Positions 4,445-16,855 are shown, counted from the first letter of the stretch. The stretch is 64,000 nt of DNA from a virus (IMGVR_UViG_3300009424_000011:1-64000), one strand, 5' to 3'. Made by a program: numbers and translations. The notes: a model not told the origin generated them from the sequence alone.

Positions 4445-4529
4445 TGGTGGGTGCGGTGGGACTCGAACCCACAAAGCGGCCGAATTTTAAGTCCGGTGAG
4501 TCTACCAATTCCCCTGTCGCCACGCACCC
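4445..4529 (-). tRNA. tRNA-Leu(TAA), atypical fold
   Basis: Loop CTTAAAA; A73; short variable region; insertion before the D arm. Confidence 0.8.
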
Positions 4530-4867: not shown

Positions 4868-4907
4868 GAAACGAAAATAGCGCCAGAACCCGGTGGGCTC
4901 TGACGCT
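4868..4907 (-). terminator. Attenuator terminator, operon C
   Basis: AGCGTCAGAGCCC-ACC-GGGTTCTGGCGCT followed by ATTTTCGTTTC. Confidence 0.75.
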
Positions 4908-5049: not shown

Positions 5050-5133
5050 TTAGAAGGGTGACAGGGAACTATACTGGCTATGCCAGCATAGTAAGGAGCC
5101 CGTAAGGCTTTGCAAGGCGGTCTGTGTGAACAT
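5050..5133 (-). CDS. Leader peptide C, MFTQTALQSLTGSLLCWHSQYSSLSPF
   Basis: ATG lies 7 nt after the -10 box (apparently leaderless); 21 of 26 non-initiator codons are Ser/Leu/Thr/Gln/Cys/Trp/His/Tyr, the downstream tRNA set. Confidence 0.85.
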   Translation of the reverse strand: MFTQTALQSLTGSLLCWHSQYSSLSPF

Positions 5134-6247: not shown

Positions 6248-6265
6248 ATGCCAAGAACCAGCCGG

Positions 6266-6304
6266 GAAACGAAAAACGCCCCACCGGGCGACCGGTAGGG
6301 CGTT
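6266..6304 (-). terminator. Attenuator terminator, operon B
   Basis: AACGCCCTACCGG-TCGC-CCGGTGGGGCGTT followed by TTTCGTTTC. Confidence 0.8.
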
Positions 6305-6434: not shown

Positions 6435-6497
6435 TTACGAGGTGAAACCTCGTTCTTCGCCTCTCCGGCGATCTCGTTTGGTAAATCCGTAGGTCAT
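6435..6497 (-). CDS. Leader peptide B, MTYGFTKRDRRRGEERGFTS
   Basis: AGGA upstream; 14 of 19 non-initiator codons are Lys/Gly/Asp/Glu/Arg/Phe, the downstream tRNA set. Confidence 0.85.
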   Translation of the reverse strand: MTYGFTKRDRRRGEERGFTS

Positions 6498-6550
6498 AGC
6501 AGTTACTCAAAATCCTGTTTGGTGGACACTGTGTCCGTTGTTGAAGCCGA

Positions 6551-6608: not shown

Positions 6609-6785
6609 TTACCCTGCGAGGAGGGGCGGCGTCGCCAATTCGAACTCAGCCCCAGTCGCCGTGGTGGCAATGATCCGGTCACCCTTGGCTTCGATGTCAG
6701 CGACGTTGACGATCTTACCGCACGAATGAGTGATGGTCATACCAGCACCAGCCCGGCGGATTTTCCAGCTATACAAAGTGTTCAT
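6609..6785 (-). CDS. Small hypothetical protein (58 aa)
   Basis: AAAGGA RBS before ATG (MNTLYSWKIRR...). Confidence 0.6.
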   Translation of the reverse strand: MNTLYSWKIRRAGAGMTITHSCGKIVNVADIEAKGDRIIATTATGAEFELATPPLLAG

Positions 6786-6847
6786 GTCGGTTCCTTTAGC
6801 ATGATTGCTTCGGCCGACAATAGGCCAAATTTTGGCCGTGTCAAGTA

Positions 6848-6931: not shown

Positions 6932-7006
6932 TGGTGCTTCGTGAAGGTGCTGCCCCTCCTACCTCTGCCTTGTCACGGCAGCGCTCTACTGGTGAGCTAA
7001 CGAAGC
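6932..7006 (-). tRNA. tRNA-Val(GAC), non-canonical T loop
   Basis: Loop GTGACAA; T loop GGCAGCA. Confidence 0.8.
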
Positions 7007-7083: not shown

Positions 7084-7473
7084 TTATTTCTTATACCAGC
7101 CATTCAGGCTCGGATTGTGGTGTTCGATATGGCAATTATGACATAACACAACACATTTGGCGAACTCTTTCATTATAGTTTCTTCTTTGTGATTCGAAAG
7201 CTCTCTTAAAGTAAGCTCGAAACCTTTTGAAGTCTCATCTGTATGATGAAAACACAAAGCAGCTAGATTATCTCTGTAACCACATTCTTCACAACCACCT
7301 CCTCGAAGGTTTATCAACTCCATTTTTCTTTTCAAGCCTCGGGCTTGTTGTTTTTCGTAGAGTTGATTCCTCACATTACCGTTTTTGTTCTGACATGCTC
7401 GTGAGCAAAACTTGGTCTGTTTACCAGTCAATTCCGTTTGGCAAGTCAGACATAAGACGTTCATCTCTGTCAT
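7084..7473 (-). CDS. HNH endonuclease inserted in the tRNA array
   Basis: CxxC...FCSRAC, CEECG, FHH and LCHNCHIEHH motifs; AT-rich relative to flanks. Confidence 0.85.
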   Translation of the reverse strand: MTEMNVLCLTCQTELTGKQTKFCSRACQNKNGNVRNQLYEKQQARGLKRKMELINLRGGGCEECGYRDNLAALCFHHTDETSKGFELTLRELSNHKEETIMKEFAKCVVLCHNCHIEHHNPSLNGWYKK

Positions 7474-8629: not shown

Positions 8630-8705
8630 TGGTCAGGATCGTAGGGCTCGAACCTACGGCCTTCCGGTCCCAAACCGGACGCTCTTCCAACTGAGCTAGA
8701 CCCTG
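8630..8705 (-). tRNA. tRNA-Pro(TGG)
   Basis: Loop TTTGGGA; C1-G72; A73. Confidence 0.9.
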
Positions 8706-8742
8706 AAACGAAATCGGGGGCCATGTTGCCATGGCCCCCGAT
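8705..8742 (-). terminator. Attenuator terminator, operon A
   Basis: ATCGGGGGCCATG-GCAA-CATGGCCCCCGAT followed by TTCGTTTC, abutting tRNA-Pro. Confidence 0.85.
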
Positions 8743-8771
8743 CGAGATAACTGCTTGGAGAGTGAAGTGGC

Positions 8772-8861
8772 CTAGCCACCAACCATCTGTTCGCACGCCA
8801 TCGCGACCGGGACCATAATGGCCGGTGCTGCTGGGTTATTCATGGCGACTACGTTGAACAT
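8772..8861 (-). CDS. Leader peptide A, MFNVVAMNNPAAPAIMVPVAMACEQMVGG
   Basis: AGGA upstream; 22 of 28 non-initiator codons are Asn/Val/Ala/Met/Pro/Ile, the downstream tRNA set. Confidence 0.88.
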   Translation of the reverse strand: MFNVVAMNNPAAPAIMVPVAMACEQMVGG

Positions 8862-8913
8862 GGTTGAACTCTGAAATCCTGTTTGGCCGGAACATCCCGG
8901 TCTTGATGATCGA

Positions 8914-8942
8914 AGTGTAACGACATCCGATTCGAATGTCAA
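8914..8942 (-). promoter_or_regulatory. sigma70 promoter of tRNA operon A
   Basis: TTGACA-17-TACACT; CGAATCG in the spacer. Confidence 0.88.
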
Positions 8943-9130
8943 CTAAAAAATTGCACTCACCCATTTTATCTGGTTTCGGAGCAGGGCGGCTCCTTTAACT
9001 CTCTGTCACCTGCTTGAGGATTCAAGGGGCTCCATGGAACCCACAGGAACTAAATGCGAGGATATTCGAACCACCCTTGGTTACCTACCGGGTCACCCCT
9101 GCGGACAGGGAAGTGAGAAAAACTCGAACA

Positions 9131-9488
9131 TCACTCGCAACAAGGAGAGCGGACTAAAGTTCGCGAATCATCCGTCCCGGTTTCCCGACGGTGCCCGCCT
9201 CCCTTGTTGCAAGTGAAACATCTGTGATCAGGCCGGCGGCCAAAGCACTAGCAACACCCATACACGGTTTTTATCCGGGTCTGTCGTCTCCGTTCGACGG
9301 GAGTCCACTCGCCTTAAACCTATCTGGTGCCGCCGGCCCGATCACAAATGGATCACTCGTAATGGGGCCTCTCGAAGCTCGGCCGGGTTCACTACGCCCT
9401 TCCTTCCGCCGGTTCAGTGTAAACCCACGGATCGCCGGTTAGGTCGCGTGACCGCCGACATTCCGCTGAGAAGCTTCATTACGAGTGA
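9131..9488 (-). ncRNA. Three abutting stem-closed ncRNA modules (9131-9216, 9219-9350, 9353-9488)
   Basis: Each is bounded by a roughly 17-22 bp terminal inverted repeat; 2-nt spacers between modules. Confidence 0.65.
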
Positions 9489-9495
9489 AGCGTTA

Positions 9496-9664
9496 TGGAG
9501 CCCGGAGGTGGAGTCGAACCACTGGCCTATCGTTCCACAGGAGATCAACCCTGCTTTCCGATCCACCGCGCCGCTTTCGAAGGCGACTTCACCTAAACAT
9601 CCCTGACCAACTCCCGACAACTTTCCATGGAAGCTACCAATCTGTTGTGGCGGTTACTCCGGGC
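9496..9664 (-). ncRNA. 169-nt tRNA-like RNA (acceptor plus T arm with a large insert)
   Basis: GCCCGGAG/CTCCGGGC followed by TCCA; T arm GTGG-TTCGACT-CCAC. Confidence 0.65.
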
Positions 9665-9667
9665 TAT

Positions 9668-9848
9668 CGTTTTCTATGATGACCCAGCGGGTTTGCAGCG
9701 ACGCCCAATGCGATCAAGCCACGGCTCGAATTACTGGACCTGATGCTTCGACGATCCGTCTGCATTCGAGAATTGCTGGGATCGACCTGACCTGCGGGAA
9801 CCGAGGGGAAGGTAGCTAACCTTCTTTGCTGGGCCAACATAGAAATCG
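9668..9848 (-). ncRNA. Stem-closed ncRNA module
   Basis: CGATTTCTATGTTGGCCCAGC pairs with GCTGGGTCATCATAGAAAACG. Confidence 0.6.
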
Positions 9849-9853
9849 AAAAA

Positions 9854-10200
9854 TGGAAGCAGGTTGAGATTACACCCGCTACGATCCGTCATTCGTCAGA
9901 TTATAGTGACCTTGCGAGTCACCTTCCCGACTTATCCACCAAGCCCCTTGCGGTAGCTCAGTTCCAGACCAACGCCGCCTTTTTCTCCCGGTTCTCACGG
10001 GACCGCTGGCATTTGCGGTGACACTGCATGATATTCGGCAGTTTCGATTCCGCTGACTGTCTCCAGCCATTAAGGGCTTGCGGGCCCAACGAAACTTCTT
10101 CCACCAACCAACCATCACCTTGCGAGATCAGGTCGGGCCACATTGAGGCAAGCCTCTATGGCATTAGGCGTCTTTCACATGCAGTCGTGGCAATCTTTGC
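9854..10200 (-). ncRNA. Large structured RNA, possibly GOLLD-like
   Basis: About 350 nt non-coding directly after a tRNA; five CGCAA(G) motifs consistent with GCAA tetraloops; 3' GGGTGTAATCTCAACC. Confidence 0.45.
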
Positions 10201-10203
10201 GTT

Positions 10204-10279
10204 TGGAGCAGACTGGTGGGTTTGAACCACCGATCTCACGATTAAGAGTCGTTTGCATTACCAACTATGCTAAGTTTGC
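10204..10279 (-). tRNA. Second tRNA(CTT), nominal Lys, with U73
   Basis: Loop CTCTTAA; cloverleaf; TCCA end. Confidence 0.8.
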
Positions 10280-10418
10280 AAGGTTATCCCGGTGAAGCGG
10301 TCCTCGCGGACCTGACTGCGCTTGCCTGAATTGACCGATCGGGACCGGCGGGGTTAAGTGGCCTTACCCCCTTTATGTGAGTTGCCTCACACTATCGCCA
10401 TCAGGCTGGCATTCCGTC

Positions 10419-13025: not shown

Positions 13026-13520
13026 ATGGACATCGCCGCTTTCACCGATCAGGACATCGAAGACTACTGCCACGCGCTGGTAAACAAGATGCGTGACGAC
13101 CTCTGGGCCCAGCGCTATGCGGCTCGCCATAAAGCGATGCTGGAAGCATCTCTCGAAAACCGCTTCGCTATCATCGAAGAAGAGATGACCGACGCCAACA
13201 AGGCAAAGGACTTCCCGCCGCACGCCAGTCCCTTCCCGACCGAGGCACAGCGAAAGAACATCCAGCAGCAACAGAAAGCTGGTATCTCGATCGCTATCGC
13301 AGCAAATCAGATGAGCGGGAAGACAACCCTGCTGTTGATGATTTTGGAGATGCTGGCCGACGCCGGCGCTCTGAGCGTTTCCGATACCCGTCACATCACG
13401 AGCAACTTGGGTCATTTTCTGATGACCAAGCGCTATGTCGATGAAGAAAATGTGGAAGTGATCGACCTCGACATCGACCTGAATGCGGTGTTCGCTTTTT
13501 ACGATGGGCTGGTTACGTGA
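13026..13520 (+). CDS. Hypothetical protein
   Basis: AGGAG RBS; TTGACA promoter near 12977; contains SGKTT. Confidence 0.65.
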   Translation: MDIAAFTDQDIEDYCHALVNKMRDDLWAQRYAARHKAMLEASLENRFAIIEEEMTDANKAKDFPPHASPFPTEAQRKNIQQQQKAGISIAIAANQMSGKTTLLLMILEMLADAGALSVSDTRHITSNLGHFLMTKRYVDEENVEVIDLDIDLNAVFAFYDGLVT

Positions 13521-13684
13521 GTGAGGCACACCACACCATCACGCTCCAACACGATCCAGACAACCCGGCGGCAGTAGCGTTGGTTGATCGCATATATGCG
13601 ATGATCATGCCAGAATGCGTCGGCATCAGCACCTGTTGGGAAGACGGGATCGAAGAGCATCGTTTCCGTATCGCTGGTTAAGTC

Positions 13685-15493
13685 GTGGAGCTTTCACAAT
13701 CCCACGACCGCTACATCATCACGTCCCGCGAGTCTCGTTGGGCCGAGCTTCGTGATGCCGGTTGGATATTCGATCGGCGCAACAGGTTCTACACCACAAC
13801 GGACTGGCGTAAAGCGGCCGAGTATATCGAATGGTCTGACTCCGACGAGTTGTGGAATGATCTTGATGCTAAGCTGACCGAACTGGAAGAGGCGATGAAC
13901 GCCTCCTATTCCATGTTCGCCGAAGCGGACATTGCCCGGCCGCATCTGGTCAATCACAAAGGGGAGGTGCTGGATTATTTACCTTACCAGAAGGCTGGTA
14001 TCCTCTATGCCGCTGAGCGTGATGACACCCTGATTGGGGATAGTCCGGGGCTTGGTAAGACGATCCAAGCGATCGGCCTGATCAACCATCTCGGGCTCAC
14101 CAATGGGATTATCGTATGTCCCTCGACCTTGAAGCTGAACTGGCTCAAGGAGATGTTGAAGTGGTTGGTGGACAAGGACCTCACCGTGGGCGTCGCCGCC
14201 GGCTCTGATGTTCCGGATACCGATTTCGTCATCATCAACTACGACATTCTCCACAAGAACCGGGAGAAGTTGTGGGCAGAACATTGGGACATCTTGGTTT
14301 GTGATGAAGCCCAGTATCTGTCCAATGGGAACTCCAAGAGAACTCAGGCCATCTTTGGGACTTGGTTCTTCGACCCGAGGACAGAGAAGTGGAAGCGTAA
14401 ATATGAGCGGATGAAACAACGGGTGGGTAGCACCCGGAAGCTTCCCTGCCTACCAGCGAACATTCGGCTGATGCTCACCGGGACTCCGATGATGAAGCAG
14501 CCGAAGGATATGTGGACGATGATCCGCGACTTCGATCCTGAGGGTCTGGGGAAGTGCTGGGAAGACTTCGCCATGACGTATTGCGATGGTGTGATGTCTC
14601 CGTTCGGCTTACAAGCCACCGGTGGTTCGAACCTGTCCGAACTCAACGAGAAGCTTCGCCGGGCGTTCATGATTCGCCGCCTCAAGAGCAACGTGCTGAA
14701 AGACCTACCCAGCAAGACGAGACAGGTGATCGTCTTTCCGCCTGAGGGCTTGAAGAAGACCATCAAGACCGAGCGTGACAAGTTCACCGACGCGCTCGCC
14801 ATGCTCGACGCGGCCAACACCGGGATCGAATACAACAAGAAGCTGGTCCTCGAAGAAGTGGACCCGGCTCTTATCCTCGACACAATGGCGACCATCCTGC
14901 CTCAAGGCTTCGATGCGCCGGAGATCGACGACCTTGACGTAGGGGAGCTTGCACCGGGCTTTGCGGCCTACTCAGAGGCACGCCGTGATCTCGCGCTGTC
15001 CAAGGTGCCGATGGCGGCCGAACACATCCAGCGGCTCGTAGACGCCGGTGAGAAGGTAATCGTTTTCGCGATCCACAAGGACGTGATCTCGGAACTTCAC
15101 GCTAAGTTCCCCACGGCCGCCCGGATCGTTGGTGGGATGGGTGCCAAGAAAGTCGAAGCTGAGAAGCTGCGATTCCAAGGTGACAAGGATGCCCGGATCG
15201 CTCCCGATCCAGAATGCAATGTCATCTTGTGCAACCTCAAGGCCGGCGGCGTCGGCCACACTCTGACGGAAGCCACCGTCGTCGTGTTCGTGGAGATGTG
15301 GTCGGTTCCCGGCGACATGGAACAGTGCGAAGACCGGGCCCACCGGATCGGCCTTGAACACAACGTGCTGATTCACTTCTTGGTCGTTGATGGCACCATC
15401 GACGCCTTGACCATCCAGACACTGGTGGATCGTATTTCGATGATCCAAGAAGGTGTGGATGGTATCGAACCAACAATGAAGATGGGAAGATGA
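13685..15493 (+). CDS. SNF2-family helicase
   Basis: GLGKT, DEAQ, LTGTP and QCEDRAHRIG motifs. Confidence 0.92.
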   Translation: MELSQSHDRYIITSRESRWAELRDAGWIFDRRNRFYTTTDWRKAAEYIEWSDSDELWNDLDAKLTELEEAMNASYSMFAEADIARPHLVNHKGEVLDYLPYQKAGILYAAERDDTLIGDSPGLGKTIQAIGLINHLGLTNGIIVCPSTLKLNWLKEMLKWLVDKDLTVGVAAGSDVPDTDFVIINYDILHKNREKLWAEHWDILVCDEAQYLSNGNSKRTQAIFGTWFFDPRTEKWKRKYERMKQRVGSTRKLPCLPANIRLMLTGTPMMKQPKDMWTMIRDFDPEGLGKCWEDFAMTYCDGVMSPFGLQATGGSNLSELNEKLRRAFMIRRLKSNVLKDLPSKTRQVIVFPPEGLKKTIKTERDKFTDALAMLDAANTGIEYNKKLVLEEVDPALILDTMATILPQGFDAPEIDDLDVGELAPGFAAYSEARRDLALSKVPMAAEHIQRLVDAGEKVIVFAIHKDVISELHAKFPTAARIVGGMGAKKVEAEKLRFQGDKDARIAPDPECNVILCNLKAGGVGHTLTEATVVVFVEMWSVPGDMEQCEDRAHRIGLEHNVLIHFLVVDGTIDALTIQTLVDRISMIQEGVDGIEPTMKMGR

Positions 15494-16008: not shown

Positions 16009-16087
16009 GGCAGGCACCGACATTATCGCTTGACACTGACCGGCATTTCTGCTTAACAGTGTCCATCCCGACCAAGGAAAACCCCAC

Positions 16088-16855
16088 ATGCTCAACCACC
16101 CGACACAGGCGAAGCCTTCTGTGTGTCTCTCTGACAGCCAGTGGCAAGCCCGGATCAATCGCAACCGGGCAGTAGCCAAGGTATCGAGCCTCGAAGGGGC
16201 GATCCAAATCTACAAGGGGCGCTACTTCTGGCCGCTCCAGCCGAAGCATCCGGGCAACGAGATCGACATCGAGACGATCGCTCATACGTTGGCTGTGATG
16301 CCCCGCTGGGGCGGCCAGACTGCCGATCGCTACGGTGATCCTGTCCGCTACTCGGTTGCCCAGCACTCGGTTCACGTCGCTGACATTTGCGCCCTGAACC
16401 GCAAGAAACTGGTCCCCAAGTGGGATTGGTCACTGTCCGGTTCACCGGCTCTATACGGCCTGATCCATGACGCGCCAGAAGGGTATGGGTTCGCTGATCT
16501 GGTTCGCCCGGTCAAGTATTCGGTCAACGGATACAAGGACGGCGAAGATGCCCTGATGGAGCATATCATCGAAGAACTCCGTTGCCCGGTGGATCAAGCG
16601 ATCCGGGAATGCGTCCGCCGTGTGGACAATATGATGGTGTTTCTTGAACGGGACGAACTCATGGGGCCACCGGTGGTGCCATACACCAACGAGCAAGACC
16701 ACCCCCGAATCTCGATCCACAACGTGGTTCCAGAGTTCCGTGTTTGGTCGGCCAAGGAAGCCAAGGACCGCTTCATTCGCCGCTACCAGACCATCATCGA
16801 AACCGAAGGCAACTACGAGCCTTTGGAATACACCAAGAGAGGATTTCTCCTGTGA
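16088..16855 (+). CDS. HD-domain nucleotide phosphohydrolase (YfbR/DatZ-like)
   Basis: PRWGG, YSVAQHS and LIHDAPE motifs. Confidence 0.8.
   Translation: MLNHPTQAKPSVCLSDSQWQARINRNRAVAKVSSLEGAIQIYKGRYFWPLQPKHPGNEIDIETIAHTLAVMPRWGGQTADRYGDPVRYSVAQHSVHVADICALNRKKLVPKWDWSLSGSPALYGLIHDAPEGYGFADLVRPVKYSVNGYKDGEDALMEHIIEELRCPVDQAIRECVRRVDNMMVFLERDELMGPPVVPYTNEQDHPRISIHNVVPEFRVWSAKEAKDRFIRRYQTIIETEGNYEPLEYTKRGFLL

Follow-up and report, generated by a model that had tools for sequence, protein, structure and literature searches.

Leader-peptide attenuation is a textbook mechanism for the control of amino-acid biosynthesis genes. The enterobacterial amino-acid operons include multivalent leader-peptide attenuators, such as those of ilvGMEDA (Leu/Val/Ile) and thr (Thr/Ile), as well as trpL, hisL, and pheL. 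In Escherichia coli, the leader attenuator of pheST, the gene pair for phenylalanyl-tRNA synthetase, responds to the charged tRNA for its leader codons. The pheL attenuator has been reviewed (PMC3082878), and the sensitivity of attenuators has been treated in theory (PMC1183508). A full-text literature search found no account of leader-peptide attenuation controlling tRNA genes, either in phages or in cells, and the papers on Sphingobium phage Lacusarx and Erythrobacter phage vB_EliS-L02 treat the tRNAs of these phages without mention of leaders or attenuation. The subject here is leader A, a short region directly upstream of a tRNA block in a viral DNA stretch of 64,000 nucleotides (IMGVR_UViG_3300009424_000011:1-64000, hereafter the window). 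Judged by its sequence, leader A is quite probably a ribosome-mediated attenuator of transcription into the first tRNA operon of a CbK-like siphophage with a sphingomonad-type host. Its parts and their conservation are evident from computation, as are the match between codon and tRNA alphabets, the mutually exclusive folds, and the way in which segments 2 and 3 co-evolve. Coordinates are those of the window, and leader A and tRNA block A are read on the minus strand (Table 1).

The leader open reading frame (ORF) contains an unbroken run of 20 codons, codons 3-22, drawn only from those for Asn, Val, Ala, Met, Pro, and Ile. This run had been pointed out in a sequence-only reading of the window and can be read directly from the sequence. 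Across the six frames of the 64-kb window, the second-longest run of this alphabet has 13 codons, and an arithmetic estimate based on a six-frame frequency of 0.281 gives a chance expectation of ∼1e-6 for such runs. The run did not arise by chance. The tRNAs of block A, as detected by ARAGORN and Rfam, correspond to the six amino acids of the run without omission or addition; five of the species were found by ARAGORN, and tRNA-Val(GAC) at 7006-6935 was found by Rfam only, with its anticodon read from the sequence. In relatives, the amino-acid match of run to tRNAs is up to 19/19, 18/18, and 18/20, and it is lower where the locus ends early or where ARAGORN, which misses tRNAs comparable to tRNA-Val(GAC) in relatives, finds fewer tRNAs.

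Leaders of this kind are present in 12 distinct loci: the window, L009, L010, L011, L020, vB_EliS-L02, Erythrobacter phage XM05, L013, L047, L048, L050, and L052. These loci were gathered via motif searches and via a search with an alignment of the neighboring tyrosine recombinase. The order of parts is the same throughout (promoter, ORF, stop-codon hairpin, terminator, and tRNA-Pro in 12/12). Each leader has a run of 13-20 Ala, Ile, Met, Asn, Pro, and Val codons upstream of tRNA-Pro, with the order of residues varying from locus to locus. Reordered runs of the same alphabet are seen in L013 (NIPAINMIAAPANMVPAVIA), L047 (VINNNPAPMIAAVAAIVMV), L048 (AAIVNIAIMPAVNPAAMA), and L050 (AMNNPAPVAIMVPAVA), as well as in L052, and the C-terminal tails past the run vary freely. 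An alphabet that is kept while its order is scrambled fits selection on which codons are read, not on a folded peptide. The ORF has 28-31 codons in 12/12 homologs and is the sole stop-free frame across all 12, and an indel between relatives within it is in frame.

The leader ends in a strong terminator. Its hairpin has 13 Watson-Crick pairs and one G-U pair closed by a GCAA loop, with a folding energy of -29.4 kcal/mol. The terminator had been described as a 13-bp stem abutting the first tRNA, and the fold agrees apart from the additional G-U pair: the tail TTTCGTTT ends at 8706, tRNA-Pro(UGG) begins at 8705, and the stem itself ends 6 nucleotides (nt) before tRNA-Pro. A terminator lies directly 5' of tRNA-Pro in 12/12 loci, with folds of -18 to -29 kcal/mol. 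The site is absent from a simple terminator scan because its U-tract is interrupted by CG. A near-identical interrupted tail, (U)UUUCGUUUC, is carried by three minus-strand terminators in the window (8706-8713, 6265-6275, and 4869-4879), belonging to leader A and to the sister leaders B and C; the tail in relatives is UUUUGUUUC or UUUUCUUUUC. This tail might act as a U-tract tuned to be leaky, or else as a site where the downstream tRNA is processed.

The 5' arm of the terminator can also pair upstream, within the ORF. The complementarity between 8816-8800 (ATGGTCCCGGTCGCGAT) and 8748-8731 (ATCTCGATCGGGGGCCAT), with one bulged G and one C/U mismatch, was correctly identified in the sequence-only reading; a hand count gives 16 pairs, two of them G-U, and the same pairs are present in the fold. 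The helix exceeds that description, in that ∼22 pairs join 8816-8793 with 8754-8731 and enclose the stop-codon hairpin. Transcripts cut before the terminator 3' arm fold into this antiterminator (segment 2 with segment 3, or 2:3) in seven of the eight loci first examined. When a ribosome is placed at codon 8 of the cut transcript, the 2:3 helix is clear in 8/12 loci and is seen in part in L048. The window duplex has an energy of -32.2 kcal/mol (z = -4.0), and none of 1000 dinucleotide shuffles is as good. Matched 2:3 duplexes of the various loci range from -32 to -37 kcal/mol, above terminator strength, with z = -3.2 to -4.7 against dinucleotide shuffles. In 12/12 homologs the hairpin loop contains the stop codon or has it at its 5' edge, and the stem has at least eight different sequences.

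Comparison of lineages provides further evidence for the 2:3 helix. The strands of segments 2 and 3 differ among the window group, XM05, and L050, and matched strands pair with about -34 kcal/mol versus about -25 kcal/mol for cross-lineage combinations. RNAalifold applied to a shorter plain MAFFT alignment finds 17 consensus 2:3 pairs. On this alignment 91% of cells are paired versus at most 46% with slid partners, and the covariation score is 0.231 versus 0.04-0.11 when slid, with 1 of 500 shuffles scoring as high. Double changes occur at 9 of 27 segment-2 columns when each sequence's own fold is used, a count that is biased toward pairing by construction. Segments 2 and 3 co-evolve in three lineages.

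Segment 2 has a second potential partner in the upstream part of the ORF. The RNAalifold consensus for eight sequences pairs segment 2 with codons 3-15 through 21 pairs (the protector, 1:2). The alignment of the whole region from ORF to loop gave 1:2 and not 2:3 because MAFFT cannot align the variable spacer. The protector is significant against shuffles in some relatives (z = -6.3 in L047, -2.9 in XM05, and -2.8 in L048). A protector had likewise been proposed from the sequence: ACCGGCCAT does pair with ATGG..CCGGT inside a larger ORF hairpin, whose topology is conserved but whose energy in the window is at chance level (see below). The usual signature of an attenuator is also seen, in that segment 1 is similar to the 5' arm of the terminator and segment 2 to its 3' arm.

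The influence of ribosome position was modeled on the transcript without the 3' arm, using a footprint that reaches from -15 to +12 relative to the first A-site base and scoring the probability (P) of the outer antiterminator pairs. In four loci from three lineages, P is 0.8-1.0 with the A site at codons 2-12 and 0.58-0.99 at codon 1. P falls to 0 across codons 16-22 in the four loci and across codons 15-23 in the window. The inner part of 2:3 persists in both states, which keeps segment 2 beside the emerging 5' arm and should favor rapid zipping. Segment 2 is left free only by stalls at codons 1-12; codons 13-23 lie on or next to it. The folding model supports a scheme in which an early stall would lead to read-through and a ribosome on segment 2 would lead to termination.

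In the proposed mechanism, the promoter A transcript would open with a 29-codon test ORF whose codons 3-22 call for the amino acids of the seven downstream tRNAs. Codons 16-23 could pair back with codons 3-15 or forward with the spacer and the terminator 5' arm. Slow decoding within roughly codons 1-12 would leave the leading ribosome covering segment 1 and segment 2 free. The 2:3 helix would then zip from its inner part once the terminator 5' arm is made, the terminator would form too late, and the polymerase would read through into Pro-Pro-Ile-Asn-Met-Val-Ala. With fast decoding, the ribosome would have reached segment 2 or the apical stop-codon hairpin by the time the terminator is transcribed, so that 2:3 would be prevented, the 14-pair terminator would form, and transcription would halt 6 nt before tRNA-Pro. 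The outcome would be negative feedback, with the tRNA set made on demand. We infer that leader ORF A is translated, and the timing and direction of the response and its physiological signal are deduced in the same manner. The parts of the classical 1:2/2:3/3:4 layout first proposed for this leader are all present, most of them also backed by the 11 other loci, and 2:3 and 3:4 exclude each other, but the layout is not strictly classical, as the stop codon falls between segments 2 and 3.

Several observations weigh against such an attenuator. The Shine-Dalgarno sequence is weak, with AGGA 15 nt from the ATG (-19) and only a GAG motif at 7 nt (-11); relatives have an AGGA or GAG-type motif at comparable distances. 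The match of run to tRNAs is looser at the level of codons, as the ARAGORN set reads 14/20 run codons by strict wobble; when tRNA-Val(GAC) is added, 17/20 are readable and GUA and two GCC codons are left unread (hand count). The protector is at chance by energy in the window (-19 kcal/mol, z = -0.3) and in L020, L013, and L050, and no convincing equivalent of the 2:3 helix is found in L013, L047, L052, and, in part, L048. A search of Lacusarx 5' of tRNA-Pro and between its tRNA genes turned up no leader A. The terminator is present in every equilibrium fold of the full transcript (-78.1 versus -59.7 kcal/mol for the best state that lacks it, a gap of 18 kcal/mol) and has P ∼1.0 under every ribosome mask. 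Since the terminator always wins at equilibrium, the switch must be kinetic, as in classical attenuators. Equilibrium masks on the full leader and a measure of any pairing of the 5' arm were dropped, as the former gave no discrimination and the latter was too crude. Finally, codons 13-22 use the same alphabet, which the simple model does not account for, and yet lie on or next to segment 2, where stalls would favor termination; the outer 2:3 pairs re-form past about codon 24, with P = 0.79 for a ribosome at the stop codon; and the cut transcript prefers 2:3 when no ribosome is present. A ribosome at the stop codon would presumably cause termination through a steric block at the helix tip or through re-formation of 1:2. 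The last three observations, including that of the stop codon in the footprint model, are also what might be expected if the same parts answered to another signal, such as general translation capacity or transcription-translation coupling (for example, early ribosome availability), or if the logic were reversed, with fast ribosomes past segment 2 allowing 2:3 and good decoding giving read-through. The general and the reversed sensor are considered improbable, and are so considered jointly. A general sensor needs no alphabet restricted to the amino acids of the downstream tRNAs, yet the alphabet is kept across 12 loci while its order changes, and leaders B and C show a comparable match to their respective blocks. 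Reversed logic would create positive feedback, seemingly a poor design.

Other explanations dispense with the ribosome as a sensor. Leader A could be a constitutive leaky terminator that ends the short leader transcript, an insulator of the tRNA operon, or an element for tRNA-precursor processing or stability, the ORF being incidental or encoding a functional hydrophobic peptide. The strength of the terminator and its constant success at equilibrium, the weak ribosome-binding site, a hydrophobic peptide that could sit in the membrane, and the ability of Lacusarx to run block A without leader A all speak for this possibility, which is nonetheless rated a shade lower than the general or reversed sensor: co-evolution of an upstream strand with the 5' arm in three lineages is more than a plain terminator calls for, and an ORF that is incidental would not keep a single open frame, the same start, and an end in a hairpin loop in 12/12 loci. 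A functional peptide would conserve sequence, and here composition alone is kept. A functional small peptide is unlikely given the scrambled residue order and the freely varying tail, and a small membrane peptide was rejected on the same grounds. It is very improbable that leader A is an RNA switch read by a protein, by uncharged tRNA in the manner of a T-box, or by Rho, with an irrelevant ORF. The alternative folds do exist with or without translation, and the hairpin in the 5' untranslated region (UTR), together with a AAACAGGAUUU motif common to leader B, could bind a factor, but such a switch leaves the conservation of frame and the codon alphabet unexplained. An Rfam search of 8690-8960 up to E = 10 yielded no family match, T-box included, and only a chance snoRNA hit. 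A T-box leader was rejected given the lack of a covariance-model match and a conserved frame that points to a ribosome-read signal.

The promoter of leader A has counterparts as well, with TTGACA or TTGACT and a TAnnnT-type -10 element at the equivalent place in 12/12 homologs (read by eye). The leader ORF starts 53 nt downstream of the -10 element. Relatives have other stems at the place of the 5' UTR hairpin (CCGGGACGCCCCGG, GCGGGAUUGCCCGC, and GCGGUUCUCCGC). In the full-length minimum free energy fold with the terminator formed, the 5' half of segment 2 (8805-8816) pairs with GACCGGGAU of the 5' UTR hairpin (8895-8903), and this hairpin is a possible fourth partner of segment 2. A 5' UTR module consisting of a small hairpin, then AAACAGGAUUU, a GAG motif, and the ATG is common to leaders A (8877-8900) and B (6513-6545), both on the minus strand. 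Peptides starting with Met-Phe are found in leaders A and C of the window, leaders B and C of Lacusarx, and gp083 of phage phiCbK (discussed below). On the minus strand 5' of promoter A (8970-10415), a lone tRNA-Lys(CUU) at 10204-10279 is accompanied by ∼1.2 kb in which no ORF is credible. Relatives have one isolated tRNA (Lys, Ile, or Glu) at the equivalent position.

Table 1. Features of leader A, tRNA block A, and the sister leaders in the window
Feature	Position	Strand	Description
Promoter A	8942-8914	-	Sigma-70-type: TTGACA 8942-8937, 17-nt spacer, TACACT 8919-8914; 10/12 consensus matches (scan)
5' UTR hairpin	8887-8900	-	CCGGG-AUGU-UCCGG; near transcript start; from folds
Ribosome-binding region	8869-8880	-	Purine-rich; AGGA 8880-8877 (15 nt to ATG), AGAG 8872-8869 (7 nt to ATG)
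Leader ORF A	8861-8772	-	29 codons + TAG; ATG at 8861, TAG 8774-8772; peptide MFNVVAMNNPAAPAIMVPVAMACEQMVGG
Putative sensor run, codons 3-22	8855-8796	-	N/V/A/M/P/I codons only; NVVAMNNPAAPAIMVPVAMA
Segment 1	8819-8853	-	5' strand of ORF-internal hairpin; includes ACCGGCCAT 8826-8818; RNAalifold consensus
Segment 2, codons 16-23	8793-8816	-	AUGGUCCCGGUCGCGAUGGCGUGC; alternative partners: segment 1 or segment 3 (folds)
Stop-codon hairpin	8767-8779	-	GUGGC-UAG-GCCAC; apical part of antiterminator; folds
Segment 3	8730-8754	-	Spacer GCAGUUAUCUC 8754-8744 + terminator 5' arm GAUCGGGGGCCAUG 8743-8730; fold of transcript without 3' arm
Segment 4, terminator 3' arm	8712-8725	-	CAUGGCCCCCGAUU; GCAA loop 8729-8726; hairpin fold
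U-rich tail	8706-8713	-	UUUCGUUU; overlaps last two stem positions
Putatively controlled block A	8705-6848	-	Pro(UGG) 8705-8630, Pro(CGG), Ile(GAU), Asn(GUU), HNH-type ORF, Met(CAU), Val(GAC) 7006-6935, Ala(UGC) 6925-6848
Leader B	6435-6497	-	MTYGFTKRDRRRGEERGFTS; contains KRDRRRGEERGF; promoter 6579-6551; before Lys/Gly/Asp/Glu/Arg/Phe tRNAs
Leader C	5050-5133	-	MFTQTALQSLTGSLLCWHSQYSSLSPF; contains SLLCWHSQYSSLS; promoter 5169-5141; before Ser/Leu/Thr/His/Gln/Cys/Trp tRNAs

The minus strand of the window carries 27 tRNA genes and a permuted tmRNA (ARAGORN, Rfam). The tRNA-Val(GAC) that completes the six-amino-acid set of block A has the anticodon loop GUGACAA and an odd T arm; tRNAs reported by Rfam and not by ARAGORN are at 6935-7006 and 4452-4520, both on the minus strand. 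Past block A, the next strong promoter-like site on the minus strand is at 6844-6817, directly after tRNA-Ala, and consists of TTGACA, 16 nt, and TATTGT. It is followed by a small ORF, MNTLYSWKIRRAG..., in the region 6609-6844 (minus strand) between blocks A and B. Two weaker promoter-like sites (9/12) are inside the HNH-type ORF, at 7294-7267 and 7163-7135. This ORF of 129 amino acids (7084-7473, minus strand), between tRNA-Asn and tRNA-Met, has Cys and His motifs that look HNH endonuclease-like by eye, and a similar ORF is present in the Lacusarx array before leader C (L039 ∼16080-16440). The two are likely homing endonucleases that travel with tRNA operons.

Leaders B and C were assessed for presence, alphabet, and conservation. 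Each has a run that is equaled but not exceeded in length by others of its alphabet in the window, and both leaders recur in relatives that include the corresponding blocks. In leaders B and C the first tRNA lies upstream of the terminator, the reverse of the order in leader A. Leader C is probably leaderless, because its start is 7 nt after the -10 element. Leaders B and C are also present in Lacusarx, the most distant phage examined, at L039:15157-15216 and L039:16484-16552. Elsewhere in the Lacusarx array, L039:13056-13363 comprises a promoter and ∼300 nt of RNA that seems to be structured and has no matching ORF, ahead of tRNA-Pro(CGG), and further tRNA-like pieces are found at 13450-13715.

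A looser match to leader A is found in phiCbK (JX100813). Its gp083 (L055:3541-3678) is annotated as a hypothetical protein of 45 amino acids, MFALSHNSLSTKAASPASLSL..., of which 25 residues are Pro, Lys, Leu, or Ser by hand count. It is followed by a predicted terminator and then by tRNA-Pro, Pro, Lys, Lys, three Leu, and two Ser tRNAs. A second small ORF, MSKTYRQFVRQIQVVRNI..., at ∼L055:5345-5440, together with a terminator, precedes a Phe/Val/Ile/Ile/Val/Gln/Gln block. This arrangement may represent the same kind of control, reaching the CbK phages.

The window comes from a viral contig of 96.8 kb. Its closest deposited relatives are XM05 and vB_EliS-L02, which were the sole matches in DNA searches against deposited phages, near and distant. 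The recombinase that neighbors the module in module-bearing phages has 50-92% identity to that of the window. In phiCbK and Mesorhizobium phage Cp1R7A-A1, no tRNA array adjoins the recombinase gene, and the phiCbK array is elsewhere. Searches of viral and metagenome contigs with exact or degenerate core motifs gave mostly chance hits, which were set aside (L006, L015-L019, and L021-L038, including portal-protein PANMVP motifs and unrelated genes); the only homologous ones among the core-motif hits are L005/L007/L008, L020, and L034. Among cultured relatives, vB_EliS-L02 and XM05 carry the leader A module and Lacusarx carries leaders B and C. Because cultured relatives carry the module, the attenuator reading is testable now.

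On balance, although with less assurance than for leader A itself, it appears that tRNA-array phages may well run a demand-sensing circuit, in which a "checklist" ORF would gauge, via ribosome speed, the decoding of the codons served by the downstream tRNAs, and the block would be transcribed only when decoding is slow. Slow decoding could result, for example, from scarce host tRNAs, mismatch to phage codon usage, or anticodon-nuclease cleavage. If such a circuit exists, sensors A, B, and C would split nearly the whole amino-acid alphabet among three independently gated tRNA operons, and this would be the first case of attenuation known for tRNA genes. Phage tRNAs would then be supplied on demand by decoding-speed feedback and not simply expressed, which bears on the reasons that phages carry tRNAs (codon-usage compensation, host shut-off, and escape from tRNA-cleaving defenses). 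Leader A would also offer a small natural device for sensing how well a chosen set of codons can be decoded and would flag a class of tiny genes overlooked by annotation pipelines.

Leader A shares much with the enterobacterial attenuators: a promoter-proximal ORF rich in the regulatory codons of several amino acids, an intrinsic terminator before the first regulated gene, mutually exclusive 2:3 and 3:4 pairings with a putative 1:2 alternative, and a segment 2 that would be freed by an early-stalled ribosome. Two features of its layout set it apart and count against the proposed mode of action: in enterobacterial attenuators the stop codon is just before segment 2, whereas in leader A it occupies the apical loop that separates segments 2 and 3, and half of the leader A run lies on segment 2 itself. 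T-box leaders likewise choose between terminator and antiterminator according to tRNA status, ahead of genes related to translation. However, they recognize uncharged tRNA by direct binding and are independent of translation, whereas leader A has a conserved reading frame. The pheST leader is similar in that leader-peptide attenuation is applied to a component of the translation apparatus, but it governs one synthetase for one amino acid, whereas leader A would govern seven tRNA genes for six amino acids. Unlike the enterobacterial attenuators, leader A is phage-encoded, samples six amino acids in a 20-codon run, and would control tRNAs instead of biosynthetic enzymes, thereby both sensing and supplying decoding capacity directly.

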